A stretch of DNA of 64,000 nt, taken from Lytechinus pictus. Lineage: Eukaryota. How positions within the stretch are numbered: position 1 is the first letter of the stretch; each line of letters opens with the position of its first letter. Shown here in pieces: positions 24,601 through 48,411 of the stretch. The notes beneath the pieces were generated by a model, which was given only the letters and a program-made list of their open reading frames with translations, was not told the DNA's origin and searched no databases. The position numbers were made by a program, and so were the translations under genes. The stretch is from positions 33,420,001 to 33,484,000 of the forward strand of contig NC_087245.1 of assembly GCF_037042905.1 (NCBI RefSeq). The letters are read 5' to 3'.

Positions 24601-27600
24601 GATCCATTTAAGCAAATGACGATATAACTGTCGAAAAATATTTCCGCTTGAGTGAGCACCACTTACTTTTGAAAAGTTAGTGAAAAATGATTTGCGCAGA
24701 ACTTTGAAATAGTTATGCGAATAAAAGTAGACCTTAATCATGAAGAACACATGGAATTTAGCTAGTAAAATTGATTTGAAGATATCTTTTACCCTTTTTA
24801 ACTTGTTTCCTTGCCCAAAACACTTCGAAGAGTACATTGCGCCCCACCCCACTCCCCCCACACACCAATACCATTGTGACGATATTTGCTTTACACTGAG
24901 CTGTGATTTACATGAAATGGCTTAGGCTTGATTTTCATTTTGTTAATCATTGTCAAGCTTGGAATAAGTGTGGAGAAACAAGTATTGAATGAAAAGTGAA
25001 ATGTAAACCCACTTTACATGATAAAACCTTAGTGAAAAATGCTGGAGATGTCTGATATAAACTTTTGTTCAGATTCAGTTATGTCTTCAGATCCAGCTTG
25101 CACAAAAATGGTAAAGGTTGTGCTTACTAAGTGTTGAAATTTCAATTTGGGTGGCAAAATTGTTACAAAATGTTTGAATGGATCCGTTTTATTCAATTGA
25201 CACAAAAGTGCAAGGGAAATGTATGAGAAATGTTTCGCAAGGAAAGTTTGATTTCGCCCTTTCCCCTTGACACAGCGTGAAAACGAGCATTTCTGCGCAA
25301 ACTGATTTCTGCGAGCTTTACAAAAATGGACAGTGCTCACTCAAGTGTAACATTCTGTCAAAACTTTTACTTTCATTGGATAGATGAGACCCAAACCCAA
25401 GATTATATGTGAAAAAATTACCCACATGTTGTATATTTTTTAATTCCCAGGGTTTTTCAAAGTGTAAACTTTTTTTTGATACGCACTGTATAATGCTTAT
25501 TTTAGGGGAAAAACAGTGACATGTAATTTATTTTATATTATCAGTGCCTTTTTATGAGGATAGTTTGTACCAACCAAATTGCCTTCTTTTTACAGTAATT
25601 TTAGGTTGCAGAGGATATGTAGTGTACATTTTCATTTGATTATACGTTATGAATGGTTTACAGCTCTGATAAGGTCAGAATTCAAAGTGAAAAACAGAAT
25701 AATTCAGCCGGTAATTATAAAAGCCTCTCAGTCATTCATAGAGATGTTGCATTAAGTGTCACAAAGTATATCTTCAGGCAGGCATGATCATGCACATCAA
25801 GCCACTGCGAAACTCGAAATTAATACTCCATCCCTATATTAACTTTTTTTTAAAGATCTTGTTGGTTCCCATAAAAGCCTGTATTTTTATGAAATGTATG
25901 AAAATAGTTTAACCTTATATTTACCTTTTGTTTCCTTTTTTTTAATATTTCAGGGTCTTTTCAATGCTAATTTCCTCTTCTTCTTCCTTCATATGAGTCA
26001 TATCGTTGGCCTGGAGATCTTGTCTTACATCGTCATGAGGACATTTGGAGTAACGTGGTGGACGTTCATCGCATGTGTAATGATGCACGGTACACTTCAG
26101 GTATGGTGAACTACATGTACATGTACATACATTATTTAATGTGTGAAGATGATACTCGAATCTAGGACTGTTGCATGAAAGTTTATATTATTACAAAATG
26201 GTCACTTTGCCAACTCATTAGTATTTAACTTCTTGGAAATCCTTGATTTTGATTGGCTAGCGTGTATGGTTACCAATACCATATTGGATATTGAAGTTCT
26301 TATGAAACAGTGTAGTGGCCAATTCTTCTTACACAACATGTATACTCATTATAAAAATATTTAATCAAATAAAAGACAGTAATACCCCAACTATTAAACA
26401 TAAAGTTCTAAGAACAAGGAAAGTGGGGATGTGACATCAGCTCACCTAATGAAATATTCATGACGACAACTGTTTTCACAATATATTACTAAATTTTAAA
26501 TTTTAATAACTTTACTATTATCAGATTTTGATGAAATTTTCAGCATTTTACTGTGCTAAATTTACTCTATTAGATTTAAGTATTTTCAGCCAGGAGTACC
26601 CCCTTTAAGTTTCATCTTCCATTCCATAAATCAACTGTGATAAAAAATCATCAGACAGTCACATAAAGGCCTAATAATTATTTACATAAAGTATTGCAAT
26701 CATCAATAGCCCCTACAGTACCAATGCTCATCCCCTTTACTGTTTGAAATCAGAATCACTACAGGTATTGAGCGAGACAAAGTTGACCTTACATATAGTT
26801 CATGGTTGAAATCACAATCGATTGATGATTGAAAATAAACAGTGAACCATGAAAATTGAAGTTGAAATTAAAAATGTATAAATATTGCAAAAATTATGAA
26901 CTTTGGATGATCACTGTTTACAATGCAACATTCTAAAAAAAAACCCCAAACATTGTAAAGGAGTATTGATTGTCATTTTGCTTCAAGATGTGAAATTTTG
27001 AAGAAATTAAATTGTGAATATACAAGAAATTTGTATAAGTACAGTATGTATGATAGGTATATAAGGGATGATCAAATTGCTGCTGTTTAAAACCTTTGTC
27101 TAAAAACTTTGCTAAATTATTGAGGGTAAATGCTGTGAAGTACTTATAAGCATGATCCACATGTAAAATTCTAATCTTTAAAAAGTGTAGTGGCAGTTCA
27201 ATGTTTTTGAGGCCAAATTTAAATAAAATTGTTGATGTTTATGGCCCTCTCTCAATTATATTTTGCCTCCGACGAAGATTCTGCTAGGATCGAAAGCTTA
27301 GGCCCCTTTTTGACTTTCTGATTATATTTTTGCTTCACTTTAAAATGAACTTAGCTTAAAAATTTAATGATTGGATGTCAGAAAACTGCATACACATGTA
27401 CAGTGTAAAAACTTTCAGCCTATTCCATACATGTAATAACATGAAAAGTAAATTTATATTTAAAAAATAAATGTTCCTGTAAAATCACATTATTTTATTG
27501 CATGTCACCCTAAACATTAGTTAAAGGACGTACATATTTGTGTATTGCACATGTAGTAATGGACTGGAACAGTGATAATGCTTTTTGAAAATTTACAAGA

Positions 27601-30600
27601 GGCTTAAAATCATGTAATTTGGTAAAAATAGTATCATTGACAACAATTAATCGTAATATCCAGTAGCTGTTTGGTGATGGTGACACTGACAAAATCTGTC
27701 GTCTTCCCATTCGGGGGGGGGGGGGACTCGAATTATATTGATACCTACATGTTTGTGCTGCAGCATGCTGCAGCAAAAACTACGAATACAGGGGGCTCTG
27801 GAACTAAACTTTGGTCAGAAAATGTGATCTCCGGAACTGCTTTTGGATAACAATTGCTAAAAATGCAATGCTCTGGAACGGCACAAATTAGGTGTTTCGG
27901 AGCTTTATATAAGTATGCATGAAATTGATCATGACGTTTCTGCACGATAAACCAATTACCGGTCTTGGAATCGCTGTGCAAAGCTTTTGCTGTCTGCTGA
28001 ACGCAGTCAATGTCGATTTGCCACTTTGCTGCGCTGAGTATGAGCATGTAGTAGGTCCATGGTAAGGGCGGGCACTGGAATGAGAAACCACAAATTTTGG
28101 GGTCTCCGGAAAAGGAAAAAAATAGGAATTTCTATGGTTTTCTATAAATTGGTGATGTTCTGGAACAGAATTTTAGGCTGAAAATCGACCGTGGTACATA
28201 CATACATACAGTATCATACATTTATACTAAGAAACCCTAACCCCCCCTCCCTGGATGTACATTTACATGAAGACAATGGTGAAAAGCAACTTTTCTGTTT
28301 CAAATACAGGCGCAGGTAGGATGGTTTCAACATGATCTTGGTCACCTGTCATGCTTCAAGTCATCAAAGTGGAACCATGCCTTGCACTTTATCTTCATGT
28401 CTACAGTCAAGGTAAGTGGTAGTTCTACATGAGGGCAACAAGTAGTTTCGCTGTCATGACAGCCCGAACCCCCCTAAAATTCCCCAACTTGAATGCATTT
28501 GTGCGATCATTTTTGTTTCGTCTGCATAGCAGAGCAAGACTATACAGTAGGTGCCACTTTTCCTACAACAGCATAGTCAACATTGAAATCTTAACCTTGG
28601 TTAAGTTTTTGAAATGTCATAACTTAGAAAGTATATGGACCTAGTTCATGAAACTTGGACATAAGAGCAACCAAGTATTCCTGAATATCATGCGTGAGTT
28701 TCAGGTCACATGACCAAGGTCAAAGGTCACTTAGGTCAATGAACTTTGGCCATATTGGGGGTATTTGAGGAATTATCATAACTTTGAAATTTTATGGATC
28801 TAGTTCATGAAACTTGGACATATGAGCAATCAAGTATCCTTGAACATCCTGTGCTAGATTCAGGTCACATGATCAAGGTCAAAGGTCATTTAGGGTCATC
28901 AAACTTTGGTAATGTTAGGGGTATTTGTGGAATTGTCATAAGTTTAAAAGTCTATGGATTTAGTTCATGAAACTTAAATGTAAGAGCAGCAATGTATCCC
29001 TGAATACCCTGTGTGTGTTTCAGGAACATGGCCAAGATCAAAGGTCATTTAAAGGTCAATGAACTCTGGCCGAGTTGGGAGTATGTGTTGAATTGGCATT
29101 ATAACTTAGGAAGATTATGGTACTTGCTCATGAAACATCGACATAAGGGTAATCAAGTATGAATGATTGTTTTGCACATGTCTTAGGTCACATGATCATG
29201 GTCAAAGGTCATTTTGGGTCAATGGACATAATATTTTATTATATCATATTAGTGTTTTCTTCTGTGAATAATTATTCATTCTTCGGCACGCAAGCGATAA
29301 TCTCAGAAATAGAGACTGTAATGGTGTACCAGTATTAAACGTAATAGTAACTCTGGTATTGAAAAAAATCAAATACCGAAAATAGGCGAAAAAGCTATAG
29401 AAAATTATAATACTAGTCATTTACATGTATATAGTGCTATTTTATAAATATATTAGAGGCGCTCAAGAAAATAGAAAGAATACTTGCGGATGGTCTGTTT
29501 AGAAATGGAAAGGGGCTGTTTAAACTTTTTTCCTATAATGAAGTGAAGTATTGATACATAGTATGAATTCTAATACATTGTTCTATCCATCCCAACAGGG
29601 TGCATCAGCTAAATGGTGGAATCACATGCACTATCAGCATCATGCAAAGCCTAATGTGGTATGTACAGAGTTATCAAACTATTTCTGTTTTACTCCACTT
29701 GATAATGATCTCAAGATTGCAAAATATGTTGAATTCCATGGACACAATACCCATGAATACTTGTGCAAGCACAGGATTTTGTACACACGTACATGAGCAC
29801 TTTGTAAGGAAATTACATCAAAGAGGTTTTACAAACCTTTTTTAAAATACTTATTTTGGGGGAATTGGATGTTTGTAGAGGTTACAAACTGATAGGTAAA
29901 CAAAAACATCACTTTAATAGAGTGTCAGTTGCCAACTCAATACCAAGTAAATAATGATTTGATTCTGCAATAGAGTACCAAAGTGTGACATCATCAATTT
30001 TCCCTTTTTGCGTTGCCAGCGTATTAGATACCATATTTTGGTAGAGCATGATGACATTTTTGTGACGTCATCATTTTGGTACTCTATGGAAAATGTTTAA
30101 AAAGTGCAATTACATGTAAATGAGCCAGAATCCAATGACTAGAGGTAACAATTTAATTGCAAAGTGATTAGAAACATTGTTCTAATGTGATAGTAGTGCT
30201 AAACAAAAGTGGATTATTATTAATGAAATATTTATGAGTATGAAATCATTTTTTTTTCATGTTTATCCTGCCTGAATTCGGTTGATGGTACCTAGCAATT
30301 TATAGAAGTATGGAATACAAACATGGCCATATGCAGAATTTTTTTCCCGGGGGCATACAACTTTAAGAAATTCCAAAGTGAGGGAGCGAAGTGATCAAGC
30401 TTGTCATGGGGTGCTTTTGCATGTTCTGAAGTGAAATTGAAGGATCTTGTGCAGATTTTTGATGAATACAGTAAAAATTTTCAGTAATATATGTAAGTTT
30501 TCAAAATTGCAGGGGGTGGGGGGAGGATAACTGCCCCTCCCCTCCCATGCGTATGATCATGGATACATGTACAAGAAATGTGATGTACATGTAGCAGGAT

Positions 30601-33600
30601 GATGACTCTTAATATGAGAACGAAACTGATATCTTATTTTTCTCTGCTTCAGATGAACAAAGATCCAGATGTTCGTCTTGAAAAGCTCTTTGTTGTTGGA
30701 GAGAAGATGCCTGTGATGGTCGCAGAGAGTGGTCAGTCGTCAATGCCATACAATCATCAACACAAGTACTTCTTCCTGAGTAAGTTTATCTTTGCTATCT
30801 CATCAGTCCTGTTCCGATTCTCAGCCTATCCGGAAGAATTGCAGAGTGTTTTGCCAGTTTTACAGATTATTTGAGGTGTGATAGCTCAGTTGATATAGGA
30901 GTGTTCTTGTAATCCTGTGACCTGGGTTTAATACCAAGTTGATGCACTAGTACCCTTTGGTCCCTTGGAGAGGACATTGGGCTCTCTGTCCCCCAGTTGT
31001 TCACTTGTCCAAACTGACAAGCATCTATGCTCTCTTAAGAATCAGGTTGAAAAGCTGCATGAACCAAATTCAAACTGCCGGCAATGAGAACAGGCCTCTA
31101 TTTCATTTGATGTCATACCAAATGATTAAGAAATGATTCTTAAAGTAGCCAATTCTATATAGCATGCTTATTGACATATTGACAAGGGGGGATGGGGGGG
31201 GGGGGGTCAATGAATCATTTGTTTTCATATCCTATGAAGCTTCTTAGGATGATATTGATATTTAAACTGAAATTGATATTTTGTCATAGTGTGTTAAGTA
31301 ATTGTCATATAACAATTCATTTCTTTTTCCCATAAAGCTTGAGTGAATATGATTTATCATGTCTTGTGATTTATTTTTTAGTTGGACCCCCTTTGCTGTT
31401 TCCTGCATACTTCCAATTCATGATTTATCGTCACATGATCAAGCAGAGGGAATGGACGGTGAGTTGAAAATGTTTTTGTTCATTTAAAGGACATGTCCAC
31501 CCCAACCATTGATTTTTGATGAAAAGATAAAAATCAAACAAGCATTAGAATTAAGTCAAATTCAGATATGAGATAAAAGAGTTAATATATTTTTTAAGTT
31601 TTGCTGAATTTCATTAAACAAAATATACAAATAAGGGAATCAATGATGTCTCCGAATCAATATTTCTTTTGTATTTCATTCCATGATGAAATATTAAATA
31701 TTTTAATTTTTCCTCATTATGTTGTAAACCAAAGTTTGATTTCCCCCTGAACACTTGGAATTAATATTGTTGAACCTATTATGAGTCAATGAAGAGCTTC
31801 TGTGATGTCAATACTGCAAAAATTGAAAAATTTATTATTCAAACCGTAAGATACAAAAGAAATACCGAATGTGTGACATTATCAACTTTCTTATTTACAT
31901 ATTGTTGTGTTGTGCATCCATGTATAACTGAAAAATAAGCAATATATGCATTTTATAATGTTATAAAATTTGTTATTTGTATCAAATTTTCATGAAATTT
32001 TCTGTGTTATTCATGGTTGTTTCTCTTTTTATTCAAATTGCCTTTTTATTGGGGTGGACTGAAGCTCTTGATTATTTAGTTATCCACATAGGGCGTATGA
32101 CATAAAGATACGCTTAGATCCTTGGTACCCTTTAACAAGAAGATTTGAAGGAAGTGGTTGCTTGTTGTCAAGTAATGGCCCTTCCAGTTCTTCCTTTTCA
32201 GATCTTATCAAGATCTTACATTTCCCAAGGAAAAAAAAAAGGGAATGTGAAAGCTCGTTCAGACAAAGTGTGACAAACCTCATCATTGTATTTGTATTAT
32301 ATTTTATATATTTAATCATGATTAAAAAGTCTGCTTTCAGCTAGATGCTGCTTTTCAGCAAGGCCGTGGACAACTGATACTGATGTTACAATATCACACA
32401 TGAACTACATGTAGTACTTAACACACATTCTTGTACTTGTAATTGTCACAAAATAATGTGCAACACTGCAGGATTTGAATAGCCATACAACATGTATTTC
32501 TGTCCTGTGCTTGTGACCCCAGATTTTGATAGATTACAGTTGTGTATGACTGCATCAGTCACACCTTTGTAACTGAATCCAAACCAACTGATGAAACGCA
32601 ATTTAGTATTACTGTACAAGCTGTTATTTTCGCGTATAGAATTTTTTGGGAATCGGGGGGGGGGGGGGTCCCGACATTTTCGCGGGTTGTTAAATTTGCG
32701 ATTGGAAGATGTACGAAACACCCCACAGCATTTCAAAGAAGCAAAACTAGTGCAAATCATGTGCAAAACTATGTTCCTCAAAGTCCTCATGCTGATGTGT
32801 CTTATGTACATAAATATGTCCCTGTAAAAACAGTTACAAAATGTGGAAAAAAGTGGCTTAAATTTCACTTTTTTGTACCTTTAGATCTGAAAATTCATCA
32901 TGTCACAGTTTGATCTGTAAGAGTAATCTTTTGAAGGTGTGTTTTGTTAGATTCACTTTTTTAAAAGTTGGTTTTAGTGCAAAAATGTTGAATTTTGTGA
33001 ACAGAATCTTACACCACTAAAAGCTCTGGTCATGTGACTTATGAATATTAATGAATATGCAAATAGCTGCCAATACGTGTGTGTATATAGTGAATCAGAT
33101 GACAATAAAATCAAATTATTTCATGGAAAATACATTTTAATATTACAGTGAGTGAATAAATATTCTAATGGTAATGTTGTAAATAGTGTTTCATTTTCTT
33201 TTCATTCACATTTTTCTCCTCTAGGACCTGTTCTGCAACGTCTTATACTATGTCAGGTTTCTATACCTCTATCTACCTCTCATGAAATGGTGGCAAATTT
33301 TTCTCTTCTATGAATCCTTCAGGTTTGTTTACTAGTAGAAAATAATAATATAATAATGATGACGGCATATTTAACCAGGGTAGCCAATTCAATTCCGAAA
33401 ACTGTTCTCCCAGCGTGCCCTGCTATTATCATTTCCCCGGCATTGGCTGGGCTGCCTAGGTGCTCAGGCATTCAATAAATTTCTTCCTACCAGGTACCAA
33501 TTTACCTCACCCAAACTTAGTGCAGCACAATATGGGTAATTTTCTTTCTGAAGGAAAAAAACCATGGCTAGGAACCAAACCCACATCCCTCAGATTGGGA

Positions 33601-36600
33601 TGAGAGTCATAACCACTCAACCACGTGCCCCCCCCCAGACAGACCATTTTATATCACTAAGGGCAGTAGAGTTTAATCAGTCCAGGGTCCCATAATTCAG
33701 AGCTTTAAATAGCAATTGGTCTTGGGGCCTATTTCTATGATTGATTGCATTGATTATTATGTGTGATCAATCCCGAAAATCTACCCCACTATCAACCGTT
33801 ACTCTTTATGTTATGGGGACGAGGGGCCCATTTCATAGGAGCGTTGTGGCCCAGTGGATTAGTCTCCGGACTTTGAAACAGAGGGTCGTGGGTTCGAATC
33901 CCAGCCATGGCGTAATTTCCTTCAGCAAGAAACTTATCTACATTGTGCTGCACTCAACCCAGGTGAGGTGAATGGGTACCTGGCAGGAATTTATTCCTTG
34001 AAATGCATGAGCGCTGTAATCTTTGTAATTACGGCTGCCAAGCTACAGCTGGGGTAATATCCAAGTCCCTGGGAAGCGCATAGAGACATTATTCATAATT
34101 GTGATATGCGTTATACAAGAAGTGTTTATTATTATTATTATTATTCATAAAGAGTTACAACTGTTGTTACTTTGCCATTATGGCAACTACCATGGAAACC
34201 TTGATTCTGATTGGCTGCTGAGCCCTGTTACCATGGTAGTTGCCATAATGGCAAAGTTACAACAGTTGCAAGTCCTTTGCAAGGCCCCTGCTCTGTTTCA
34301 GGAAAACACCTTTGGATATGATTCCTGAAGAGTGTTTCATCAACATTTGTCTTCTGACACGTTTCTGACACAACAATGATTATAGTTTTTAATCTACCAT
34401 ATAATATATGAACAATGCACAAATTATTCAATCTCAATTTAAAGAAGCTAGTTTACTCTTACTGTGGTTGTCATATTTCTAATCAAAACCTATTTGATGA
34501 TAGTGATGTAGAGCTGAAAACAGGTCTCCGTTTTTGGTTTTATCCTTTTGTGACTTAAATGGTATATAGAATATTCCTATTACTTTATTTACAGAGTAAT
34601 GGAAAGTATTTGGTTTACCTGGGTATCTCAGTCTAACCACATACCCATGGAGATTGATGAAGATGCAGCACGTCCATGGCTAGAGCTACAGGTTAGTGTA
34701 AAGTGCATAGAAAACTACTCCAGTTATTATGCGCTTATTAAAGGACAAGTCCACCCCAACAAAATGTCGATTTGAATAAAAAGAGAAAAATCCAACGAGC
34801 ATAACACTGAAAATTTCATCAAAATCGGATGTAAAATAAGAAAGTTATGACATTTTAAAGTTTCGCTTAATTATGCACATCCCGGTCGGTATGCAAATGA
34901 GGGAACTGATGACATCACTCACTCACTTTTTCTTTTGTATTTTATTATATGAAATGTGATATATTCTAATTTTCTCCTCATTGTCCTGTGAAACAAAGTT
35001 TTTTTTTCTCCCTGAACATGTGGAATTACCATTGTTTAACATTATGGCCCGAAGTCACAAAGGTTGACTAAAGTTATACCGGGGTTAAATTTAGTCGGGG
35101 GTTAACTAATACCGGGGTATAAAGTTAGTCCACCGCGCTATTCACAAACGGTGGACTAACTAATCCATGGACTAACTTTAGCACCCGGTGCTAAATTTAA
35201 CCCACGGCTGAGTTATACCCAGGTGATAACTTTAGTCCATGGATTAAATCATGGACTGAAGCTAGCATACTATTATAACACTGCACTGAGCATGCTCAGT
35301 GTAATAAAGCAGTACTGAGCATGCTCAGTGCCGTATTTGAGAGTTTCGTCTGCTAGGGCCATATGAAATGTCGCCATTGCATCACATGAGTTAGGAAGCA
35401 GAACTCAACCCCAAAATCATGTATCAGCAGCATGAACTTGAATTTCTTAGCAATGAGGTGTTGACAACGAACATTGTCATTACTTATTTGTTAATAGTTA
35501 CCAACTTAGGTTCGGACTACCGTTAGCGCTGCCTGCGTGCGAGCTAGCTCGACTGCGCCTGCAGCATCGTACCGTATCGAGAAGTAAGTTCAAACTCCGT
35601 CAATGTACGGTACCGTGCGGTAGGTGCACTGCAACGTGAAGAAGTTTTAACCTTTTTTAGACAGCTGCAGCAGCCGGCTTTTTCGAGGGGGTTTTACACA
35701 TTTTTTTTCAATTTCTTATTTCTCAATTGGTTAGTGGAGGCAACGGAGTCCAGCGGAACAATGACAGAGACCAAAGTTTTTTTTTTTTTTTTTTTGCCTT
35801 TTTGGTCTAATATGAGGTCCAGATCGATCGCCATCGTATTACAGTGCAGTTAGACGTGGATCTAGGCCTATAATAGCGTGCCGTAACTGCGTTTTAGGCC
35901 TGAGGAAGTTACTTAGATCTACGGAAAAATAAATATAACGTTACACACCAATTACATCTAGATCAAGTGCACATTTGTTTGAATTAAATCTGATTGTATA
36001 ATCCTACCTACCTTATCGAAGTCTGGTGGAACTTTGCCCGGAGCTAGCTTTGATAGAAAATGGAAATATGGAATTGAATCTTTGTTTGGGTTATGTACTT
36101 GGTAAATGCAATGGTGGGGCCAGCGTCGCGTGGGGTGAAGCGACATGACCTTGATCTGATCTCGCGTCCACAAGCGTGCCTCTTTTCCTTTCCCTCAGAA
36201 TTGACTTTCCCATTCGAAGTAATATTTTCAATTCATTTATTTATTTTTGTCTTTTTATATGGTGTATCTCGATAAATTGATTTTTAAAAAAAATTAAGCG
36301 AGCAAAAAAAATTTTTAATTGACATTAAAATCCTAGTTTGTGTTAGGTTTTCACATAATATCAAAAAATATTCTATTTCACCCTCATTTCTATTATCTTT
36401 TTCTTGGTCGTGAATTTTTTTTTTTTTTTTTTTTTTTTTTTGGGGGGGGGCAAGAGCCCCAAGCCCCCCCCTCCCTATTCTATACGTCAGTTCTACCAAC
36501 ATCTCCAAAAGGAGCTGAGATACTCATTAGTAGCTCCTCCACACTCACTGGTCACTCTTGCAATCGCATTATTCCCAACCTTAACCTATATACTCCAGTT

Positions 36601-39600
36601 TGCTTTGGAGGGGGGGGGGGGTCAAGCTTTTCACCATGCTTGCAGTATTTTTTTCCTTAAAGGAAACACAATTTCCTTATCAGAAAAATAAAGACTTATC
36701 AATCCTGGATAAGTGTAAAGGGTATTCCACCCAATCATAATAATATATTTGAAATTGGGGAAATATCAGTGGGCTAAATATGGCATATCAGGTAAAATAA
36801 AAACTTGCGAGCAAGGAAAAATATTCAACATTTTAATATCAAATATCCAATTTTGTGATAGATTTGACATAATATTCAGAAAATAATGTGTTTCACCTTT
36901 CTTTCTTTTCTTGGTAATATTTTTTTTTTTGGGGGGGGGGGACTTTTTTCCATGGTCAGTGGTCCATGGTCCGCCCTCTATACTTTCAAACTGAAGGGAC
37001 TAAATTTCCTAAAATAAAATAACTTTTAAACAAAGATTTATGCTATAAATATAACACCACAGGCAATTCTCTCAGTGACACATGTAGCTACCTTTACTCC
37101 TTTCATTTCTCATTTGCTTCAATCACATGTACATTATTGTGCATCTTAACGTGCCAAATACTTTTCTCTCAATTAAGTTATATTATAAATAATTTTGCAT
37201 TATGCCTTACAACAAGTTTCTTGAAGTATATCCTCCTGCACAAGCAGACAATCACTCGACTTTCTTCATACACAACCTTAACCAACATACCATTACCACC
37301 ACCCCTGTCTTACACATAACCTTAATCTCTCCTTAGCACAATTTTTATCTGAAAGTAAATAAAATAAGACTTTCTTATATAAATTTATTTTTTGCCTCCT
37401 GCAAGAACGATGAACCATGCAGCATATGGACAGAATTGATAAAAGAATTTCATTTTTGTTTTCTCCTGACACAATTACTTGAAAACGATATAAAAGGACA
37501 AGTCCACCCCCACAAAGTTGATTTGAATAAAAAGAGAAAAACACAACGAGCGTAACACTGAAAATTTCATCAAAATCTGATGTAAAGATATTAAGTTATG
37601 ACATTTTTAAAGTTTTGCTTGACTACAAACTTATATGTACATCCCAGTCGGCATGCAAACTATTTCTTTAAATTCTACGAGATGAAATATTCAAATTTTC
37701 TCTTCATTGTCAAGTGAAACCAAGATTAGTCCCCCCCCCCCCCCGAACATGTGGACATCATTGTCTGTCTCATTTGCATGTCACTGATCTGTGCATATAA
37801 CTGTGTTGTGAAAAATAAGCCAAACTTGAAAATTTCATAACGTTCCTATTTTACAACCGACGCGGATTTTGATGAAATTCTCAGCATTATGCTCGGTTGA
37901 TTTTTTTTTCTATTAATTCAAATCGAATTTTTTTCTGGGGAGGACTTGACCTTTAAAATCAAAACTTATATGTACATGTGTAGTAGACAGAGCAGTTTAT
38001 TTAGTGCATTACTTTTTAAGGTAGATTGAAATTCTTTACATAATGATACAAATGATATGTTTACGTTTTTAGAAACTCTGAATGAAAATAGATAAACAAC
38101 GGATTAAATAAAGTTTAATGAAGATTTTGAACTCTACAGCTAAAGCATGGATATCACAAGTAATTTGTCAAATATCTTTCTGAAAGAAATTAAAAGATGA
38201 TTCTATAAAATAGTAATATCAAACAAATGATAATAGCTTGCAATGTATTTATAGTGCTTACTACAGAAATGTATCTTAGGGCCTATGAAAATAGGTGAAA
38301 AAAAGGATATTCAGCAAAAATGATATCTTATAATTTAAATTTGATAAATTAAGAAGATGCAAATGCTAAGGAAAAATGAATATTTAATTAACAAAGAGGT
38401 TTTGAAATTGAAATCATGAGACTTAAAACATTGATTGTTGATTAAAACAAAATTGGTATAAAATAGACTTGAATCATAAGAAAGACCAAGTCCATCTCAT
38501 GCCAAACTTAATTAAGCATGAAAAAAATGTTGCTTATACCTCTCATGTCCCTGCTTATACATTAGCCCATCATATGTGTCATTTATATCCTGGAATTCAC
38601 GTCCCAAACCTTTTATCAAACAAGAAAAATGTTGTGAACTTGGGTTTTTAAAAAGCAAGATGGTCATTTGATCACTAATGATAAATCGGAATGCATGAAT
38701 ACATCCTATCAACCAAGCACTAGCGTACCTACGGGGGGGGGGGCACTCTGCCCCCCCCCCCCCCGACGAGCCACAACCCATGCAAAGGACGTATACCTGC
38801 CCCCCTGACGAGCTTGAACACCTTATTTTTTTGCTTGTCAATTTTTTTTCTGGTACGAAATCCTTTATTTGTGATTGAAGACCTTTTTTTTTTTTTACTT
38901 GTAAAATTTTTCGGCCGAACGGTTTTGCCCTCCCTGTGGAAAATCCTAGGTACGCCACTACAACCAAGCTACCATTTTTTATCACAAGTCTCCACTTTCA
39001 TGCACAGATAATCCAATGGAATGCTTATACCCGTAGCACACCGTCCTTTTCTATTGACAACAGAATGCAGGCAGGAATTCATCAAAGAGGGGAGCAACGG
39101 ATACCTGCAATAAGGATCAAAACAAAATGAATATTAGAAAATTTGCTCTTCGGTATTCTTTCTGCAAATATATCTTCATTGATCAAGCAATTAATACCTC
39201 CTTTACCTGAATAAGCAAAATGCATTTTTTTTTTCTATTTTTCATTTCTCCTGCAATAGGAAAGTTAGCAGATTATCTATATTTTTTTCTTCAGTGAAAT
39301 CTTTAAAATTGTCTTATTTCACATATTAAGAGTATAAAATTACAAGAAAATTTGACCAACAACAAGATTGAAACTTGATAAAAGACAGTATGTAGTAGGG
39401 GCCAATATATTTTTTCTTCATTATCACATACCTCTAGTAGGTGTTGAATACAGAGAATATCACATTAAAAACTGAGTGAGTATACCAACCTATACATTTA
39501 CAGAAGACCTGTTCTTCCTGCTAAGTACAGGGCTTGTTCCCCATGGCCTGGATTGGCCCCAATCGATAGCACCTATGACTCTTGGAAACCTGTAGCAATT

Positions 39601-42600
39601 ATCAAATTGTCTCTGGGTGGTTTGAATTTCTCGTCATCGGAAACTTCATTGACTGTTACTCCTTGCTATTGCCTCAGAAAAATCTTTGATGATTCTGCAC
39701 ACGGATGACTGTGATATAGTTGCTTCGTCTGCTTGCATCTTCTAAAAGGTACCTTTAATTATCGAATGATAAGTGATGTTATGTAATTGGTTTATTGATA
39801 TGAAAGCCAATTGATACTTTACCATTTACGTTTGCAAACATTGTGCTTCTGTTATGACCTGATGTTTAGGATGCACTGGAACTGCTTAAAGAGATTTTTC
39901 TTCGATTCATTAAAAAAAACTCTACTGCAATAACAATCCATGCAAAATGGAGAATATCTCTGTTAAGCTGAAATGACATACCAATATTTCTTTTTGGGTG
40001 GTTATAAATCACCCTTCATGATAATTTCCCACTTGAATATGACATATTTGTATTAAAAAATGTTGCTACATTGTAAAAAATTCGAGAAAAATAAAATCCC
40101 CACCTATTTCCAACCCAAAGGGTTACATGTTTCATTCCGACAAAAACCTTTCTGTTAAATACCCCCAACACTCCCCCTCCCCTGTAAGGGGTTACTAGTA
40201 CTCCTGGCTGAAAGCAGAAACAAAAATCATACAATTTGGATGATTAATAATGAATATTAGGTTTTGCATTAATTATTTCTGTGAAACATGTGCATGTTTT
40301 CATGAATATGCAAGAAATAGCCTGATGATGTCACATCCACACATTTTCCCCACATGAATGTACAAGGGTTCCATGATATTTGCTCTGGCTACAATTACTC
40401 AATGGAAAATCTGCATGCTAAGCAAAACATAAAACTTAATTTTCATGACTAGATACTTCCAATCCGCGATCCTTACATTATTCTGAACTCGCAATAACTA
40501 TCTTAAATATATAATCAGCAGTCAACCCCATTTTTACATTCCTGGAGGAAAAAAAATAATGATTATGATTTCAGATCACTAGAGAACAAGTGGGGATATG
40601 AATATTGCATATGAGATACACAGAACTGTTTCCCCCAAGTTATGTAAAACTTTAAAACTGAATCAATTCATAATTCTCCATCCAATATTGATGGTTTTTG
40701 CTAGTCGAATTGTTCTTTATCAAAATCTCATCATTTTTGGCCTGGAAAATCACTTTCATAGAACATAATTTGACCCCCCCCCAATTACCCTCTGCTTTCT
40801 AGTTCGCACATGAAAACTCACCAATGACATAAAACAAAGTCCTGTCAAAACCTGTAACATGACAGGCAATGTGTGGTTCTCTCTGTTGGTACCCCACTCT
40901 GAGAGGTTCATCCTCGTAGTATTCAAATGGATTCTTCCTGTCTCTTAATCTATGCTGTGGTCTTTCTATGTGTTGCTGAATCTGCATGGAAGTTAAAAGA
41001 TTGTGTTTAAGAGTCACCATGAATGGGCAATTTACTCTTTGAATTTCATTTAATTCAAAAGTGTTTAAAATGAGGAACAGAATGTGAAAGATTATACAGA
41101 AATCCTTAAAAAAAAATAGGATAAAAATTCTAATTGACATGAGTAGCTTTTCTATTTACCTACTTGTAAAAGTGAAGAAAAAAAAACCTGCCAATTGTTG
41201 CTGATCATCATCATTGATCAAACCACGCACGTCATAGAGATGCTTCTATGAAAACTGATTTACTGAATCACTTTCAATTGGCTTTAATAATGAAGGCAAG
41301 GCACTAATTTTATGAAACTTTGTTTACACAAATAGAGGTTATTGCTTGCGAGTGACTTTCGAATAACATATTTTCATGAATCTTCATCAAAGTCTCATTA
41401 AACCTTTTTTCTACCCCCCCCCCCGGCATTCATCAGACTGACAATGCTTTCTTTCTCTCTTTTGTTAAATAAATATTCAACAAAATGTCAGGATTAATTG
41501 GAGATCAACAAGCCTAGTGACCAGTAGACAAATATATATGTTAATAACACACAAGCAAGGTCCCCCCCCCCTCTTCTTTTTTGTCAATTACTATGACAAG
41601 AATGAAAAAGTAACATACATGTCACATGATACATTTACAATTACATGATGAATTCAAATCCCAGAAATAATATTTTATTAAAAAAGGCCATTTTAATGAC
41701 ATTTAATTTTTTTTAAATATGAATTGATAAGGCATACCTCACTCTCTTGCAAGACGGCACAGCAGTTCAAAATTGTGAGCCATGTTTGCTTTGTCTTGAT
41801 TGAGCACAATCTGCCGAGTATGTATGGTCTGTTGCTGATATGGAAGAAAAAAAATAATGAAAAAAATATTTATTCATCAATCATACTGCAATGTCAAGGT
41901 ATATCAAAGAAAAAAATAATAAAGCAGCTACAAATGTAGATTGATAAAATCCGCTGTTTCAGAGGAGTCGTTCAACATTTTCTGATTTTTTTTTGGTGGG
42001 ACGGGATGCTGCGGAGCCACATGAAATCTCAGGGGAGCATATCCCTGACAGAAATAAACCTATTTATCGGTCTACTACAAATGTAGAGGACTGAAGATCA
42101 AATGCACTTGTCTGTGGTCTCATGTGAATATAACATTGGGACTCCTTGTGAAAAAAAAATACTTGAAACAAAGAGGGTGGGGTAGAGTTTATAATAACCC
42201 TCAAAAGAGAGAATTTTCAAAGTTAGACCTCAGTTAGATCTACTCAAATAATCAATTAGGCCTAGGATTTCCATTATTTTTTAATGTTTTGACGACACCG
42301 TAAATCTATAAGTGATCGCAAATGCAATGCCGAAGGTCAGTAAAACTTAGTTTTAGTAAAAGTAAAATCAGCTCATTTATAGTTGTTGGAGTAAACAGCG
42401 GTGAGTGGAACCCAATCTTTATTAAATATTTTTTCAAAAAATAATTTAATCAGGGCTTGCCTTAGCCTTAAGTTAGAGTTGACCCTTATTAAAATATTTT
42501 TTTTACTCCAACGATGTTGTAGGACTAACTCTAACATGGCTACCAGGTAAGCTTCATAGCTTGACCATCTATCCAAGCCAAGACAAAGCCAGCCCAGAGT

Positions 42601-45600
42601 AGAATGTCTAAGTTAGACCGGCTCTGTATTGTAGTGTTTAAACAAAACTTATTTGTATTGCTGCTCTCCTGGACTTGCCTTGGCCTTGCTTCAGTCTCAG
42701 ATAAAATTAGATGCACAGTAGCTGTGTTGGCAGGGCCAGGAGGAGTGGCAGGGGTATCGTAGACAACAAAAATTCCATGAAAATCACTGCCTGACATAAC
42801 TAGCAAATAGTATCGACCTTTCAATCACGCCTACCTGGCATGTGTAGTGTACGCTAATTGCGTCTCGCACTGCAATGCTCATAGATATGAACGCACACAA
42901 AAGTACATGGCTGGGACTGAGCAGCTTAGAGACGCGACGATAACAATGATTCAGATACCATTTCAAGTTTTCGAGTATACCTTTTGGAAAGTTAAAGCTA
43001 TCAATAATAGTTACAGATGGAACTGAAGGCTCCGTCATGATTTAAGCTCCAAAAATTATGTAATTTACTCTTACGATCTCGGTCGAAGTCGTGAAATATG
43101 AAGCTTTAGATAAGCCGATCACACCGAATCTCGTCTCTGCCCAAAAAACTTTTTTTCTTGCAGCAAACTTTTCCGCAATCGAAATGCTGCTCTCTGATTG
43201 GTTAAAACAGTGGACTAACTTATAACCCACCGATTTAGTCCACTACCCCATATATAGAGCTGACTAAGTCGTGACGTCAAATGACGCGTTTTATACCCCG
43301 GTATAACTTTAGTCGACCTTTGTGAATCGCAAAAGTTAGCCCCTAGGTGCTAACTTTAGTCCATGGATTAAAATGACGTCAAATGACGTGTTTTATACCC
43401 CGGGTATAACTTTAGTCCACCTTTGTGAATTCGGGCCTATATGGTTCAGTCAAGTTGGTCCTTATTGTGAAATCTGTAAAAATTGAAATATTGTATAATT
43501 AAAACAATAAAAAACAAAAGAAATAGTGAGTGAGGGACATCATCGATTCTCTCATTTGCATGTGACTAAATTGTGCATATAACTATTTTGAGAAAAATAA
43601 GCGAAACTTTAAAATGTCGTAACTTTCTTATTTTACATCCGATTTTGATGAAATTTTCAGCATTATGCTTGTCCAATTTTTCTCTGTTGATTCAAATCAA
43701 CATTTTTATGAGGTGGACTTGACCTATAAGTATTTATATTATACAGTATTGGATGGCTCAGAATGGAATACCAGAAATATTCCAAGAGTTTGGGCAAATA
43801 TTCCAAGAATCGCAGATGAGTGGAATATTGGCCCTAACAAGTGGAATATTTCTGGTATCTCATGAAAGAAAGCCATCCGATATAATTATTATCATCTATC
43901 CCATCCATTTTTCACAAAATCGTAATTTATTGAAAAAAATCATCTCTATATGTCTCTATTTCATAAAACTTACACAAATATGGTTATTAGATCAATGTAA
44001 TTTCAGGTAACTTGTTTTTTTCTTCAATCATTTTATTAAAACTAGGGTGAGATATTCACATGTTTAAATGTTTTTTTTTCATCTGCAAGAGCAGTGCACA
44101 TTTTAGCTTGCATGCAGCTTGAGCGCCGTGATGAGCGAGTGCGACAGGCATTTTATTATGAAATACACTTTTTTGGGGAAAAATACACTTTTTTAAATCA
44201 CAGAATGCACTTTTTCATTCCCAGAGGTTGGCAGGTCTGCTAGCAATCAAAAAGAGGGATAAATTTGTTTAAACAAGTCATATGATCACTTATCGCATAA
44301 TGGCATCATCACTTCATAAGATCAAATAAGGTCGTTGACATGCGACTTGCATGTAGTTCATTATGATGCCATTTAGTGTCACTGTGCTCTTATGCTGCAC
44401 ACCGCATTGCTTTCATTGTTGTACGCGTTGTATAGTTTTCGCGCATGCGCACTATACTGTTGAAAATGCTCTCATTCAATAGCAAATTTTGTACAGGAGC
44501 CTATGGGATACTCTTTGGATTTCGATCATTCTAGGGATACGCTCTGATACTGCACAGGCGATTGATGCAGACCAAAATACGCGTTTTTAATGTATGGCTA
44601 AAATGCTCCATATTGATGATAATATTTGTTATATCCTACATAAATCACATCATGTATGCTGATTGGTTTAAATAGCATCATGTGACCAAACATATTCTCA
44701 CTATTTTGCAATGATGTTGCAAATGAAACGCCCTCTGAAGAAATATTACTATTCCGTGATGTCAATGATGGAATAGTGCACTATTCCATCATTGACGTCA
44801 CAGATCATTGGTAGAGATTGCACAATCTCTCGGGCGCAGGCACAAATCTACGTTCTGCTGAGGACGTAGCTTCAGGAAAAGTAGGTCAGTCAGAGCAGCG
44901 TGTTATCTATATTTTGGTTCAGATTAAATAAAGATGAACTACATGTACAAGAACTAGATTATCAAGATTTGTTGGTCTAACTTATTAAATGTAGGATATA
45001 AAACAAATATACCAGGATTTTATTTTGAAAGAGGGAATTATTAAAGTATATAGGGAAATACAAAATTACTATTTTTTGGGGGCTTTGCCCCTCGGGGAAA
45101 AATAGCAATGCCAGTCCAACCCCAGACGAATAATTCCCGCTATACTTACTCAAAGCCTGGTATATTTGTATATTATTTTTACTCAGTTATGCTTTGGGTT
45201 AGTTTGTCATAGCCATCACAGGTCGAAGTTTGCGGTTCACTCACAAGTTATATATTAGTGAGAAATTGGCCTCTAATAGACTTATGGGCCCTTTGTTTAG
45301 TATATCAAAGAGTATATCAAAGCCACTAGGCTCAGCACAGTGGATTGAACACGGCTTCAAGCGGATGGATCGTATAATGAATGCATGAAGACATATTTTG
45401 TTTGTTTTATGTAACACAAGGAAAACACCTTTAAACAAGAGGACAATATTGCTTAATGAATTTATCAGGATATTCTAATGTTGAGTTGTATGGATCAAAA
45501 AAAAGTTTTCCTTTGTCATATTTTAAAATTTTTTCATATTTTATTTTTCATCCAAGCTCCGTGCCACCTGTAACCTTGAACAAAGTTTCTTCAATGACTG

Positions 45601-48411
45601 GTTCACTGGACATCTTAATTTCCAGATTGAGCATCAGTAAGTTTCATCTCATTAACCCTTAGTCCCTATCTAGGCCGGGGTATTTTGGGAAATCATATGG
45701 CCCGGATGGGGGGGGGGGGACATACAAATATAAACAGATTAAGATTAAATATTTGTAAAATCGTGCATTTTACTAAGTGATTCTTAAATCTTTTGATATT
45801 ATTGATGTATATTGGTGCTTTTTTGAGAGGTAATAGATAAATATTGAATTTGAAAAAAAAAATCAACATTTTTAGCTCTTTCTCATGAAAACTGATAGGG
45901 AGATTCTTTTCGAAGTTTTAAGTGAAAGCCTCCATTGTCAGTACTGCTGTCGACATATGCCTTATTTTTTCATTTTTTTTTAGCTTTGCACAATTGTTAT
46001 TCATGTTGTCAAATGTATGTTCTGTTGCAGTTTGTTCCCAACGATGCCAAGACACAACTATCATAAAATTGCACCGCTGGTGAAGACTCTGTGTAAAAAG
46101 CATGGTATTGAGTACAAGTCCAAGACATTGCTACAGGGCTTTGCTGATATAGTCCGGTAATGATCTGAGATTTATATTTTACTTTCACCCACGTATTCTT
46201 AGAGATTACAAATTAGTTTTTTTTAATCAACTGAATTAAATTTTACAGTTGATTCAAGAGTAGTCGAAGGGGAAGCCAGCCTTGATCATAAAATGTTGTG
46301 TTGGAAAGGAGAAAGATAAATTAAACAGAATGGTGACAGTTTGAAAGAAATCGGAGAAGTAACAAGAAAGTTATGGCTGCTTTAAACTTGAGATCACTAA
46401 GTCTATGTGGATTTCAAAATGGCGACTGGGTAAGTAAATTACGACAGGGGGCAAGGACAACTTTCCGGTTTGCCATGTACCTAATTATCAGGAGTTAATA
46501 TTTTTCTCCTAAGTATTTATTCCCCTGGGGCAATTATCTAAATATAACCCAGGTAGTATATTGTTTTATAATTTGAAGTAAAACTTTTTGGAAAAATTCC
46601 ATTTTAGAAATGTTATGTATTGGAGTGCATGGAAGAGTGGTCCTAGCCCTACATCACTATGACATCACATATGCGGCCAATTTGAAGTCACCATGGGTAT
46701 AGTGATTACCAATGTCTGCAACTTTTAAACATTCATAACTTTCTTATTATTTGACCGATATTGTTTAACTTTTACCTATCAACTTGTCTGATTTTCTTTT
46801 TCCTCTGAATATAAGTTTTAGTTGGGTTGGATTCCACTTTAATGAATTTAATGAATTTGACTTCTATTGAAATCATCTCATGAAATGCAACTTGAAATGG
46901 TATGGCATTTATTGGGTCATGCTTCACAGTCACAAATACTGAATTGCACATGGATATAATATTAAGAAGTATGAGGATTTTGTCTGTAAGCAGAGAAAGA
47001 ATAAAATCTAAGAAAGCACATCCTGTTCTTTCTCCTATTGTAAATGGATGTTTCAATGCAGCTGGCTTCCTGTTACTTTTCACATTGCCTCCATAGCTTG
47101 AATCAAATAGGCATAACTTATGAAGTACTCTAGCTCTCTGTAGGCGGTGCTGCACCATCCCGAGTTTGCTCAATCTCGAGATTTTAGCCCGATCGGTCCT
47201 CTTCGCGATTAATCTCGAGATTGAAAAACCCCGTCTCCGCCATCGCAAGAAGAGCGATTCCTGCTCGAGCGAGGCATCGATGCATTATGGTCTGACGCCG
47301 TGAATAAATAATCCCGAGTGCGTCTGCACCTACGAATTAGCGCGCTATTTTGCAAATAATCCCAAGTTGACTTGGGATTGCAATCTTGAGATTAATCCTA
47401 CGAACTAGCGCGATAAATGCGTCTCCATTGCAAATAATCTCGAGATTGTTCAGATCGGGATAATTTGTTGGATCAGAAATAGCGCGCTAATTTGAAAACT
47501 CGGGATGATGCAGACGGCCCTTGTAGGCATAATTTGTAAACAGAGAAAGAATTAGTCTAAAAGAAAAGAAAGAGCAGGATAAGTACCCAGCCTGCTAATC
47601 CCTTCACTTTAGATTTATTGACTGCTATAATTTATAAGAGAAGAAAGAACAGGATGTGCTTTTGTGTACACAGGTTTAGTGCAGCTTGCCAATCCCTTTG
47701 CTGTAATTGTAATTGACTCTCACATTGCCTCAATGCATGAATCAAATAAAAACAGTGGTTCTAGAAAAATAGTGAACCCCACCAGAAAATGCTCACCTTC
47801 ATGCTGAGTGCTGAATGGAGACAACAACACTACAATGTTCGGCGAGCCCAGAGAAATAAATTTCATTGAATCTAATATTTTATCACCTGACTTCACAATT
47901 ACATATCTTAAACATGGCAGCACTTGAACGCTTGAAATATGTTAATTTTCTGGTGGGGTTCACAAATTTTTAGCACCATCGTATGTCTGAAGGCTCATCT
48001 GCCATTTTGAAAGCAAAACCTCGCGGATTAGTAGGTTTATTTATTTCATGATTATGAGAACTGTCTGCAAGAAAGCATTAATACTTATGGTGTGAAAACA
48101 AATATGAATTTCTATCACATCAAAGTATACATTGCTGACACATGAGCTGCGAAATATGAAGTATAAAATGCATTTTACTTACATTTACATTTATATTGGC
48201 TTATATATTCATATGTAATGAATTCTACACAATTATGCCATTAACCTGTGATGTATTTGATACATCCTGTATTAGATTGAAGTAATTTGTGGATGGTCCG
48301 TGTATATCATTAGCTTTCATTTCCGTTCTGTCTTTCAGGTCCCTCAAATCTTCTGGTGAGATTTGGTATGATGCCTACTACCATCTTCAAGATCAATATC
48401 CCGATGATTAA
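18443..48411 (+). CDS. FADS2: Front-end fatty acyl-CoA desaturase (FADS1/FADS2-like), 12 coding exons, 1362 nt, 453 aa
   Basis: join(18443-18670,19419-19565,25954-26100,28310-28411,29599-29658,30653-30779,31382-31458,33225-33322,34595-34691,45557-45636,46031-46156,48339-48411); all introns GT-AG and frame intact; cyt b5 HPGG plus HDLGH, HYQHH, QIEHH. Symbol denotes the family; regioselectivity cannot be read from sequence. Confidence 0.95.
19419..19565 (+). CDS. FADS2: Desaturase coding exon 2
   Basis: cag|EAFTAFHND...[12 protein letters not shown]|gtaggt. Confidence 0.95.
20364..21000. mobile_element. piggyBac-like non-autonomous element
   Basis: Right end ggttttaggg|ttaa; decayed left end ttag|ccttaaacc. 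Confidence 0.5.
21731..22255. mobile_element. Repeat with a ~180-bp terminal hairpin plus atatcctac/gtaggatat inverted motifs
   Basis: Palindrome 21731-21909 centred on gggc-gaa-gccc; homologous inverted copy at ~44625-45172. Confidence 0.7.
22527..22821 (+). mobile_element. tRNA-derived SINE
   Basis: A box tggcccagtgg, B box ggttcgaatccc, shared core cactcaacccaggtg..aatgggtacc, (TAT)n tail; several copies in window. Confidence 0.9.
23830..24019. repeat. Near-perfect ~190-bp palindrome
   Basis: Arms match as reverse complements apart from a few substitutions and one ~7-nt indel; centre tacatgtacac-c-gtgtacatgta. Confidence 0.92.
24503..25488. mobile_element. Tc1/mariner-like non-autonomous element
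   Basis: TIR cagtg(t/c)gtatcaaaaaaaagtttacact; TA on both flanks. Confidence 0.88.
25954..26100 (+). CDS. FADS2: Desaturase coding exon 3
   Basis: cag|[21 protein letters not shown]...GTLQ|gtatgg. Confidence 0.95.
27265..27320 (+). ncRNA. Minimal hammerhead-ribozyme-like motif, probable Penelope-like element remnant
   Basis: gcct-CCGACGA-a-gattct(gct)aggatc-GAAA-gc-TT-aggc: stem I, 6-bp stem II, palindromic AGCT stem III; U4 position is C; flanked by an attatatttt(t)gc duplication. Confidence 0.5.
28310..28411 (+). CDS. FADS2: Desaturase coding exon 4 (His box 1)
   Basis: cag|[23 protein letters not shown]...VK|gtaagt. Confidence 0.96.
28510..29280. mobile_element. Element with ~4 internal tandem ~160-bp units (Helentron/HINE-like)
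   Basis: Repeated tagttcatgaaacttggacata...aggtcacatga.caaggtcaaaggtca units; family assignment is inference. Confidence 0.7.
29599..29658 (+). CDS. FADS2: Desaturase coding exon 5 (His box 2)
   Basis: cag|[20 protein letters not shown]|gtatgt. Confidence 0.96.
30653..30779 (+). CDS. FADS2: Desaturase coding exon 6
   Basis: cag|MNKDPDV...[12 protein letters not shown]|gtaagt, ends phase 1. Confidence 0.95.
31382..31458 (+). CDS. FADS2: Desaturase coding exon 7
   Basis: tag|(I)[25 protein letters not shown]|gtgagt. Confidence 0.95.
31488..32060. mobile_element. TTAA-targeting Kolobok-like non-autonomous element
   Basis: ttaa|aggacatgtccacccc ... ggggtggact; same family as the 34742 and 37495 copies. 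Confidence 0.7.
33225..33322 (+). CDS. FADS2: Desaturase coding exon 8
   Basis: tag|[32 protein letters not shown](R)|gtttgt. Confidence 0.93.
33342..33625 (-). mobile_element. tRNA-derived SINE, diverged copy
   Basis: Reverse complement of the 22527 SINE including the (ATA)n tail. Confidence 0.8.
33823..34288. mobile_element. Palindromic Harbinger-like MITE interrupted by a SINE
   Basis: Removing the SINE restores a sequence homologous to 58101-58257. Confidence 0.75.
33838..34143 (+). mobile_element. Full-length tRNA-derived SINE
   Basis: tRNA-like head with A/B boxes, shared core, (TTA)n tail, TSD ttcata at 33832-33837 and 34144-34149. Confidence 0.9.
34595..34691 (+). CDS. FADS2: Desaturase coding exon 9
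   Basis: cag|[32 protein letters not shown]|gttagt. Confidence 0.96.
37495..37952. mobile_element. Kolobok-like element nested within the Harbinger element
   Basis: aggacaagtccacccc ... ggggaggacttgacct|ttaa. Confidence 0.8.
38718..38960. mobile_element. hAT-like MITE
   Basis: Ends cactagcgtaccta / taggtacgccacta; exact 8-bp TSD caaccaag at 38710-38717 and 38961-38968. Confidence 0.85.
38990..40981 (-). pseudogene. Spliced Harbinger (HARBI1-like) DDE transposase pseudogene
   Basis: Exon 40981-40822: [15 protein letters not shown] / [15 protein letters not shown] / FYVI(G). Exon 39752-39490: [30 protein letters not shown] / FPRVIGAID / [10 protein letters not shown]. Exon from 39104: YPLLPSLM. 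Motif order matches HARBI1-family transposases; stops and frameshifts present; AG/GT boundaries. Confidence 0.85.
44625..45172. mobile_element. Second, inverted copy of the hairpin-bearing repeat
   Basis: atatcctac...gtaggatat followed by a hairpin centred on ggggc-ttt-gcccc; homologous to 21731-22255. Confidence 0.7.
45557..45636 (+). CDS. FADS2: Desaturase coding exon 10 (His box 3, QIEHH)
   Basis: aag|[26 protein letters not shown](H)|gtaagt. Confidence 0.96.
46031..46156 (+). CDS. FADS2: Desaturase coding exon 11
   Basis: cag|[41 protein letters not shown](R)|gtaatg. Confidence 0.96.
46268..46838. mobile_element. Kolobok-like element, second family
   Basis: aggggaagccagcc ... gggttggattccact|ttaa imperfect TIR. 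Confidence 0.55.
47143..47520. mobile_element. CpG-rich MITE
   Basis: Inverted ends ctgcaccatcccgagttt / aaactcgggatgatgcag; internal aatctcgagatt palindromes. Confidence 0.75.
47753..47981. mobile_element. Tc1/mariner-like MITE
   Basis: Inverted ends containing gtgaaccccaccagaaaat / attttctggtggggttcac. Confidence 0.7.
48339..48411 (+). CDS. FADS2: Desaturase coding exon 12 (stop)
   Basis: cag|[23 protein letters not shown]. Confidence 0.95.

Follow-up and report, generated by a model that had tools for sequence, protein, structure and literature searches.

Transposons of the PHIS superfamily, which comprises PIF/Harbinger, Pangu, NuwaI and NuwaII (Han et al. 2015, PMC4482050), share terminal inverted repeats (TIRs), 3-bp target site duplications (TSDs) and a DDE transposase of the DDE_Tnp_4 type. 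The groups are defined by their targets, with TWA for PIF/Harbinger in the strict sense and ANT, CWG and C|TNA|G for Pangu, NuwaI and NuwaII. Multi-copy Harbinger derivatives without one or both genes are known as the solo-ORF (open reading frame) and non-autonomous variants of Harbinger-Snek, which has its closest relatives in sea urchins and many intronic insertions (PMC8437027). Derivatives of Harbinger-1M_cIno in Caenorhabditis inopinata have likewise been amplified, the transposase being thought to be supplied in trans (PMC13668399). A Harbinger derivative with a dead gene that is moved by the enzymes of intact relatives is a known and ordinary arrangement. We here describe an element of 8,392 bp at 35046..43437 (no strand assigned) of a 64,000-bp stretch of the sea urchin Lytechinus pictus (contig NC_087245.1, positions 33,420,001 to 33,484,000), hereafter the window, in which it occupies an intron of a fatty-acid desaturase gene.

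The element is real, since it carries TIRs and a true 3-bp duplication, TAT. In our reading, to which we give a probability of roughly 0.7, it is a cut-and-paste transposon of Harbinger type whose ends are intact and whose transposase gene is broken, and which likely jumped here recently by means of the transposase and Myb-like helpers of intact relatives. Harbinger-Snek variants are short or keep one intact ORF, whereas the element described here is long and contains a spliced pseudogene (PMC8437027). The derivatives of Harbinger-1M_cIno are 1.6 kb long and MADF-bearing, or short and similar to MITEs (a MITE being a miniature inverted-repeat transposable element), and they use TWA targets, whereas our element measures 8.4 kb, lies in TAT and has no intact gene (PMC13668399). 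Among the literature searched (Repbase, subscription journals and supplements lay outside the search) no description of this element family was found.

Ends, target duplication and class of the element

A sequence-only reading of this DNA had noticed 35-bp TIRs 8.4 kb apart and a 3-bp TAT duplication, and both were borne out. The left TIR (35046..35080, + strand) and the reverse complement of the right TIR (43403..43437, − strand) are identical at 33 of 35 positions (38/42 by blastn). An 18-base TIR pattern, searched with a tolerance of 3 mismatches, had three matches in the window, namely both ends and a single 3-mismatch site at 50132; in the chance control the mean was 0.04 matches and 0/100 shuffles reached three. 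TIR patterns gave no match among either metagenome or viral contigs.

The insertion site is not unique intron DNA. It lies inside a palindromic MITE of ~597 bp spanning 34738-43729, which is split at its middle into a left half at 34738..35042 and a right half at 43441..43729 (neither assigned a strand). The two TAT copies are located at 35043..35045 and 43438..43440 (both + strand). When the element and 3 bp are excised, the remaining sequence aligns without gaps over the junction to an uninterrupted MITE paralogue at 31484-32060 (415/599 identical), itself a full-length, older copy of the host MITE that is 69% alike. We further aligned four public sequence runs at 80% likeness, X1, X5 and X23 from organism A and X14 from the sister organism C. 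The empty-site joint 35042->43438, with three ambiguous letters that fit both sides, was present in 3/4 runs (11 X23 reads, 1 X1 contig and 10 X14 contigs), these being other copies of the host MITE and not necessarily this locus. As the public joints have three ambiguous letters, the duplication is fixed at 3 bp and reads TAT, within the context CAT-TAT-ATG. Shifted boundaries that would give a TWA or a 2-bp target were rejected, as they do not restore the length of the empty site.

With its TIRs, 3-bp TSD and HARBI1/DDE_Tnp_4 transposase, the latter a pseudogene recognised through its relatives, the element belongs to the PHIS superfamily in the broad sense (PMC4482050). The label PIF/Harbinger given by the sequence-only reading holds in this sense and not in the strict one. 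TAT/ATA fits none of TWA, ANT, CWG and C|TNA|G, including the targets of Pangu, NuwaI and NuwaII, although it is one base off TAA and AAT; as it agrees with no group-defining target, we place the element only in the broad superfamily (PMC4482050). The element works like PIF/Harbinger, and the single TAT site may just be off-consensus.

At the left end (35065..35240) and, as sequence comparison indicates, at the right end (43212..43418; neither assigned a strand) lie subterminal arrays of imperfect palindromes based on the TIR core GACTAAAGTTA, with ~4 units at each end. All five window matches of the core decamer ACTAAAGTTA fall within the two ends. By analogy, these palindromes are putative binding sites for a Myb partner. 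Both ends are also CpG-rich, as two promoters would be. The left region (35300..36200, + strand) has a CpG observed/expected ratio of ~0.9-1.2 against 0.2-0.5 across most of the interior and contains + strand splice signals (donors at 35584 and 35620, acceptor at 36199), making it a candidate promoter and candidate remnant of a second gene. The right region (42750..43400, − strand), with a donor at 43074, would hold the transposase promoter and a non-coding first exon. Just inside the left end, at 35277-35337, the palindrome CTGAGCATGCTCAG occurs twice (35286 and 35315) and resembles an NRF1-type promoter site.

A decayed HARBI1-like transposase gene

Coding remnants were mapped by frameshift-aware alignment to P0126, a 353-aa Lytechinus variegatus protein annotated as 'putative nuclease HARBI1', and scored against shuffled sequences. 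The sequence-only reading had recognised three spliced antisense remnants; all three beat the shuffles, and an exon with the start codon and a weak further exon can be added. All exons lie on the − strand. The first, at 41738..41834, starts at 41783 and encodes residues 1-14 (9/14 identical to P0126) before a stop, with intact AG/GT splice signals; it scored 40 against a shuffle maximum of 23 (n=40). The second, at 40822..40981, corresponds to residues 17-90, has lost 21 codons near 40885 and contains 2 frameshifts (158 against 37, n=40). Residues 91-186, including the first catalytic Asp, are found at 39490..39752, where 2 stops, 4 frameshifts and small deletions interrupt the sequence (222 against 39, n=40). 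A tentative remnant of the next exon (VCD...WP) is located at 39399..39431, its score being reached by 2-3/100 shuffles. At 38990..39104 the sequence continues from YPL onward behind a visible acceptor, with the region of the catalytic Glu lost; the alignment over 39103-38972 scored 52, which 0/100 shuffles reached. Four antisense exons thus exceed all shuffles and the fifth is weak. Most splice signals around them remain canonical. Of the HARBI1 motifs named by the sequence-only reading, 'GYPL' is in fact YPL following a splice acceptor.

The lesions amount to 1 internal stop and 6 frameshifts in the aligned part, 2 further stops at exon ends and deletions of 1-21 codons. The first catalytic Asp is present, the second is not alignable and the Glu region is lost, at the positions that we take to form the DDE triad. 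Alignment of the element interior to P0126 did not recover the last ~60 residues with confidence. Three other pieces were not accepted as transposase exons: a candidate C-terminal exon at 36173-36057 (1/30 and 4/30 shuffles reach its score), a piece at 39250-39207 (about half of the shuffles do) and a piece at 38703-38653. The term 'full-length' applied by the sequence-only reading hence fits both ends of the element but not its content, since the last ~60 transposase residues and a Myb/SANT gene were not found. The intact transposase ORF with a DDE triad that marks an autonomous PIF/Harbinger element is absent, and judging from its lesions the gene is dead and could yield no working enzyme. 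Compared with P0126, at least 35 replacement changes have occurred at 306 sites (11.4%), an approximate value as the reference is a protein of another species. At 39463-39521, on the main transposase exon, ten X23 RNA reads with at least 13 differences were aligned; they represent either transcripts or DNA from a related family located elsewhere.

A phmmer search with the exon 39493-39750 against 1.84 billion proteins gave 8 matches, of which 7 are HARBI1-like (2 above the DDE_Tnp_4 cut-off, 2 matching DDE_Tnp_4 weakly). The eighth, P0002, is an unrelated repeat protein and was left out of later scoring. A profile built from the matches found 1,400 proteins at E<=1e-20, and the top named ones, with three of the profile's own members set aside, come from Lytechinus and Strongylocentrotus. 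When 137 full-length relatives were scored, the P0126 group came first (121/173 codons identical, 70%; next 62%). In a quick tree, which contained only proteins named HARBI1-like or unnamed and in which the remnant fills 48% of columns, the remnant groups with P0126 (97% in the Shimodaira-Hasegawa-like approximate likelihood ratio test, SH-aLRT) on a branch 0.5 long. P0126 itself matches DDE_Tnp_4 with E=4.7e-35 and is encoded at 3 annotated L. variegatus loci, and its 90% cluster adds 2 L. pictus entries. P0126/P0011 (XP_041461903.1 and identical entries) shares the N-terminus, motif order and clade of the remnant, but these are intact 353-aa proteins, whereas the remnant contains stops, frameshifts and deletions and has lost the part that held the last catalytic residue. 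By these comparisons, the remnant derives from an intact, multi-locus Lytechinus family of HARBI1-like (DDE_Tnp_4) transposases. The intron-containing origin proposed by the sequence-only reading is supported. The clusters of P0010, P0013, P0014, P0016, P0126 and P0130 are distinct multi-locus 'putative nuclease HARBI1' families with near-identical members in L. pictus and L. variegatus, and give the impression of transposases that were active recently, not of host genes.

Similarity to HARBI1/DDE_Tnp_4 was seen by phmmer (7/8 matches) but not as a direct Pfam match to the remnants (16 pieces), and Pfam found no relevant family in 12 long frames and no transposase or Myb family in 10 left-end or 9 other interior pieces. 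A word-seeded homologue search missed the exon at 39490-39750 and found nothing for the left-end candidate, a PDB search gave a single chance cadherin match, and a protein atlas had no usable match for two stop-free left-end stretches (the main exon was outside that search). Since these searches also missed the proven transposase exon, a decayed second gene on the + strand near 35400-36200 is possible, and a Myb-like stretch that we read by eye at 35430-35590 is a lead only.

Age and copy number of the element

The sequence-only reading held that the element had been mobilised in trans after decaying, on the grounds that its TIRs look better preserved than its coding sequence. Were the decay of each arm equal to that of the coding sequence, an identity of at least 33/35 would be expected with P=0.011, which gives the argument some force, though modest on its own. 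Stronger support for mobilisation in trans, which we consider probable, comes from an interior that is ~99.3% alike in public contigs and apparently multi-copy. X23 is a raw RNA run of which ~6% was read, X14 is a DNA run, and the library types of X1 and X5 are not on record; contig depth is not the same as copy number. Among the contigs listed, the 7 from X5 that lie within the element show 23 differences in 3,843 bases, and the 3 deepest from X1 show 12 in 1,532. The stretch 39282-40721 is spanned by one X5 contig, which differs by 12 substitutions and 22 gap letters. X1 and X5 likewise lack the letters missing at 39544-39552, so this lesion is shared among organism A runs. A shallower X14 contig (record 11) bridges a 63-bp deletion with only 2 gap letters, having 35 bases on its short side, and the deletion therefore predates the split of organisms A and C.

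Interior contigs of X14 are 95% alike and have depths of 689 and 509, compared with 30.6 for the host-exon contig (17-23 fold), from which we infer ~20 copies with related sequence in organism C. The ratio of interior to MITE depth is 1.5-2.2e-3 and alike in X23, X1 and X5. Combined with the MITE depth in X14 of ~40,000 times that of the host exon, this ratio suggests tens of copies; if shallow X1 contigs were single-copy, the data would suggest ~5. X5 has 873 aligned records against 115,959 for X14 and nonetheless assembles much of the interior. In X14 the depth near the ends is ~8,000 versus ~700 in the interior, a pattern that shorter derivatives with the same ends would produce. Depth and identity together point to a multi-copy state in organism A. 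Because the contigs are ~99.3% alike, share lesions and are apparently multi-copy, decay probably preceded the last jump, and the element is probably a young non-autonomous copy and not an in-place fossil. The word 'fossil' used earlier thus suits the gene but not the insertion, as public contigs match the decayed interior so closely.

Several observations weigh against this reading. Four shallower X1 contigs listed (depth 15-19) are only 90-96% alike, and an X14 contig of depth 1,057 keeps the letters missing at 39544-39552, so that either this lesion is not shared with organism C or that contig comes from the intact family. Organism A has no single-copy depth baseline, and among the 24 loose ends listed (5,780 others exist) none marks a further insertion site with flanks of its own. 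At 35622-36743 the depth in X1 and X5 is lower than in the rest of the interior, which may reflect a rarer long subfamily or a homopolymer-run artefact. The 11% decay was measured against another species' protein. The target at this site is not the strict PIF/Harbinger TWA, one insertion not being a family consensus. A Myb/SANT (MADF) gene was found neither by Pfam nor by the atlas or homologue search, the same searches that missed the proven transposase exon, and the source of the helper proteins was not located.

Alternatively, an old autonomous element could have inserted and decayed in place, with the near-identical public contigs being alleles of this single locus in other individuals. 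Such a history would agree with the lack of a directly seen second site among the loose ends listed and with the unrecorded library types of X1 and X5; moreover, the nested MITEs described below could have inserted at this locus, and 35-bp TIRs are a weak clock. We nevertheless consider it unlikely given the nearly identical TIRs with an exact TSD (P=0.011 for arms that had each decayed by 11%), the raised interior depth in X14, the assembly of the interior from X5 despite little of this organism being in that run, and the equal interior-to-MITE ratios in three runs.

The CpG-rich ends and the intact splice signals around dead exons would also be compatible with a remnant that the host has recruited, whether for an antisense or regulatory RNA or as a desaturase promoter. 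This is very improbable: the mean interior depth of X23 RNA is 1.9, which is background, with a ratio to the MITE like that of the contig runs, and an Rfam search gave no match. A domesticated HARBI1-type gene is described as single copy, with an intact ORF and without TIR or TSD (PMC9710019). Here the ORF is dead, and the intact TIRs and TSD are hallmarks of a transposable element, not of a domesticated gene (PMC9710019).

Host intron, surrounding repeats and proposed history

The host is a front-end fatty-acid desaturase gene on the + strand (Cyt-b5 E=5.6e-15, FA_desaturase matches, histidine boxes). Its exon upstream of the intron lies at 34595..34691 (+ strand; the gene identity comes from domain matches on other exons) and the downstream exon with the QIEH box at 45557..45636 (+ strand; FA_desaturase E=0.018). 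The intron between them, 34692-45556, measures 10,865 bp, 77% of which is the element, so the claim that it makes up most of a 10.9-kb intron was correct. That the intron belongs to a desaturase was also correct, and its number, intron 9 as counted by the FADS exon structure, fits provided that the stretch from 18671 to 25954 contains one exon that was not located. No host splice joint occurred among the 15 joints listed of ~2,000 in the public runs.

The insertion into the centre of a MITE, and the nested MITEs carried inside the element, had escaped the sequence-only reading. The host MITE is abundant, with hundreds of unrelated flanks in public data at 34738 and 43729, by which its ends are set; among the loose ends listed, those with unrelated flanks at 34738 occur in 3/4 runs. 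It contains no coding sequence, and 25/30 bases match between its ends, TTAA|AG on the left (where TTAA is followed by the end AGG) and CC|TATAA on the right. Kolobok elements duplicate TTAA and have RR..YY termini, that is, TTAA followed by purines (PMC9587614). The terminal TTAA followed by purines (AG) is alike (PMC9587614), making the host MITE Kolobok-like by end signature, while its right-hand TTAA is altered.

Passive multiplication has to be considered at this point: the decayed element may have ridden as cargo of the TTAA-ended MITE, the two forming a 9-kb composite that a Kolobok-type enzyme moved, or the desaturase locus may have undergone segmental duplication. The element lies wholly within the MITE, both MITE ends are present and no contig listed crosses either Harbinger junction. 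On the other hand, the MITE ends match at only 25/30 bases with the right TTAA altered, the Harbinger ends are deeper than the interior, which indicates family activity of its own, and the low depth of the host exon in X14 argues against segmental duplication there. We regard passive multiplication as improbable and retain transposition of the Harbinger-type element itself.

Two MITEs, neither assigned a strand, are nested in the element. The one at 38718..38960 is flanked by an exact 8-bp duplication CAACCAAG (38710-38717 and 38961-38968), reaches high depth in public data and is, by the 8-bp TSD rule, hAT-like. A shorter MITE of the host-MITE family (~80% alike) lies at 37489..37956; since an X5 contig (37122-37540, 4 differences) crosses its junction, it probably travels with the element family. 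Further repeats inside the element are an old one at 36327-36928, 74-76% alike to 9319-9492, and a short high-depth fragment in a transposase intron at 40255-40400, alike to 62977-63050.

Elsewhere in the window, fragments of the host-MITE family occur at ~26500, 53950, 56250-56800 and 62800-63360. A dispersed repeat family (~90% alike) is found at 22525-22813, 33350-34014 and 58660-58947; a segment near 33840-33900 has a tRNA-like appearance, and the family is possibly a short interspersed element (SINE). Tandem arrays with units of ~160 bp and 42 bp are located at 28611-29217 and 57166-57457. Just beyond the host MITE, a repeat at 43850-44223 shows strand-biased X23 RNA depth (542 vs 40) and a pile of read ends at 43872.

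We propose the following history. An intron-containing autonomous ancestor of the P0126 family would have lost its gene function long ago, with at least one large deletion before the split of the sister organism. The derivative would then have picked up deletions and nested MITEs but retained its TIRs and subterminal palindromes, presumably the only parts required in cis. Intact relatives likely supplied transposase and Myb protein in trans, by which the 8-kb derivative would have been copied to sites numbering several or tens. The present copy, <1% from its family, would have landed in the centre of a MITE, duplicating TAT. Lying antisense in the desaturase intron, the element is likely spliced out without consequence, and no effect on the desaturase has been shown.

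A more far-reaching version is doubtful. It holds that the element represents a PHIS family that prefers a target of its own, TAT/ATA, perhaps with the middle of the abundant host MITE as a favoured site, and that an 8-kb pseudogene derivative has gone on amplifying in two sea-urchin species from a time before they split, not shrinking to a MITE. If true, the retained promoters or interior would seem to aid mobilisation.

In summary, the locus provides a clean worked example, of modest importance, of a DNA transposon with a dead gene that was probably still moved in trans, in which two clocks stand together: at least 11% decay in the gene and <1% divergence from the family. Should other copies confirm the TAT target, the PHIS superfamily would gain a further target class. 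The element speaks for an intron-containing HARBI1-like family of recent activity in Lytechinus, and the annotated Lytechinus 'putative nuclease HARBI1' genes of this family are probably transposases, not host genes.

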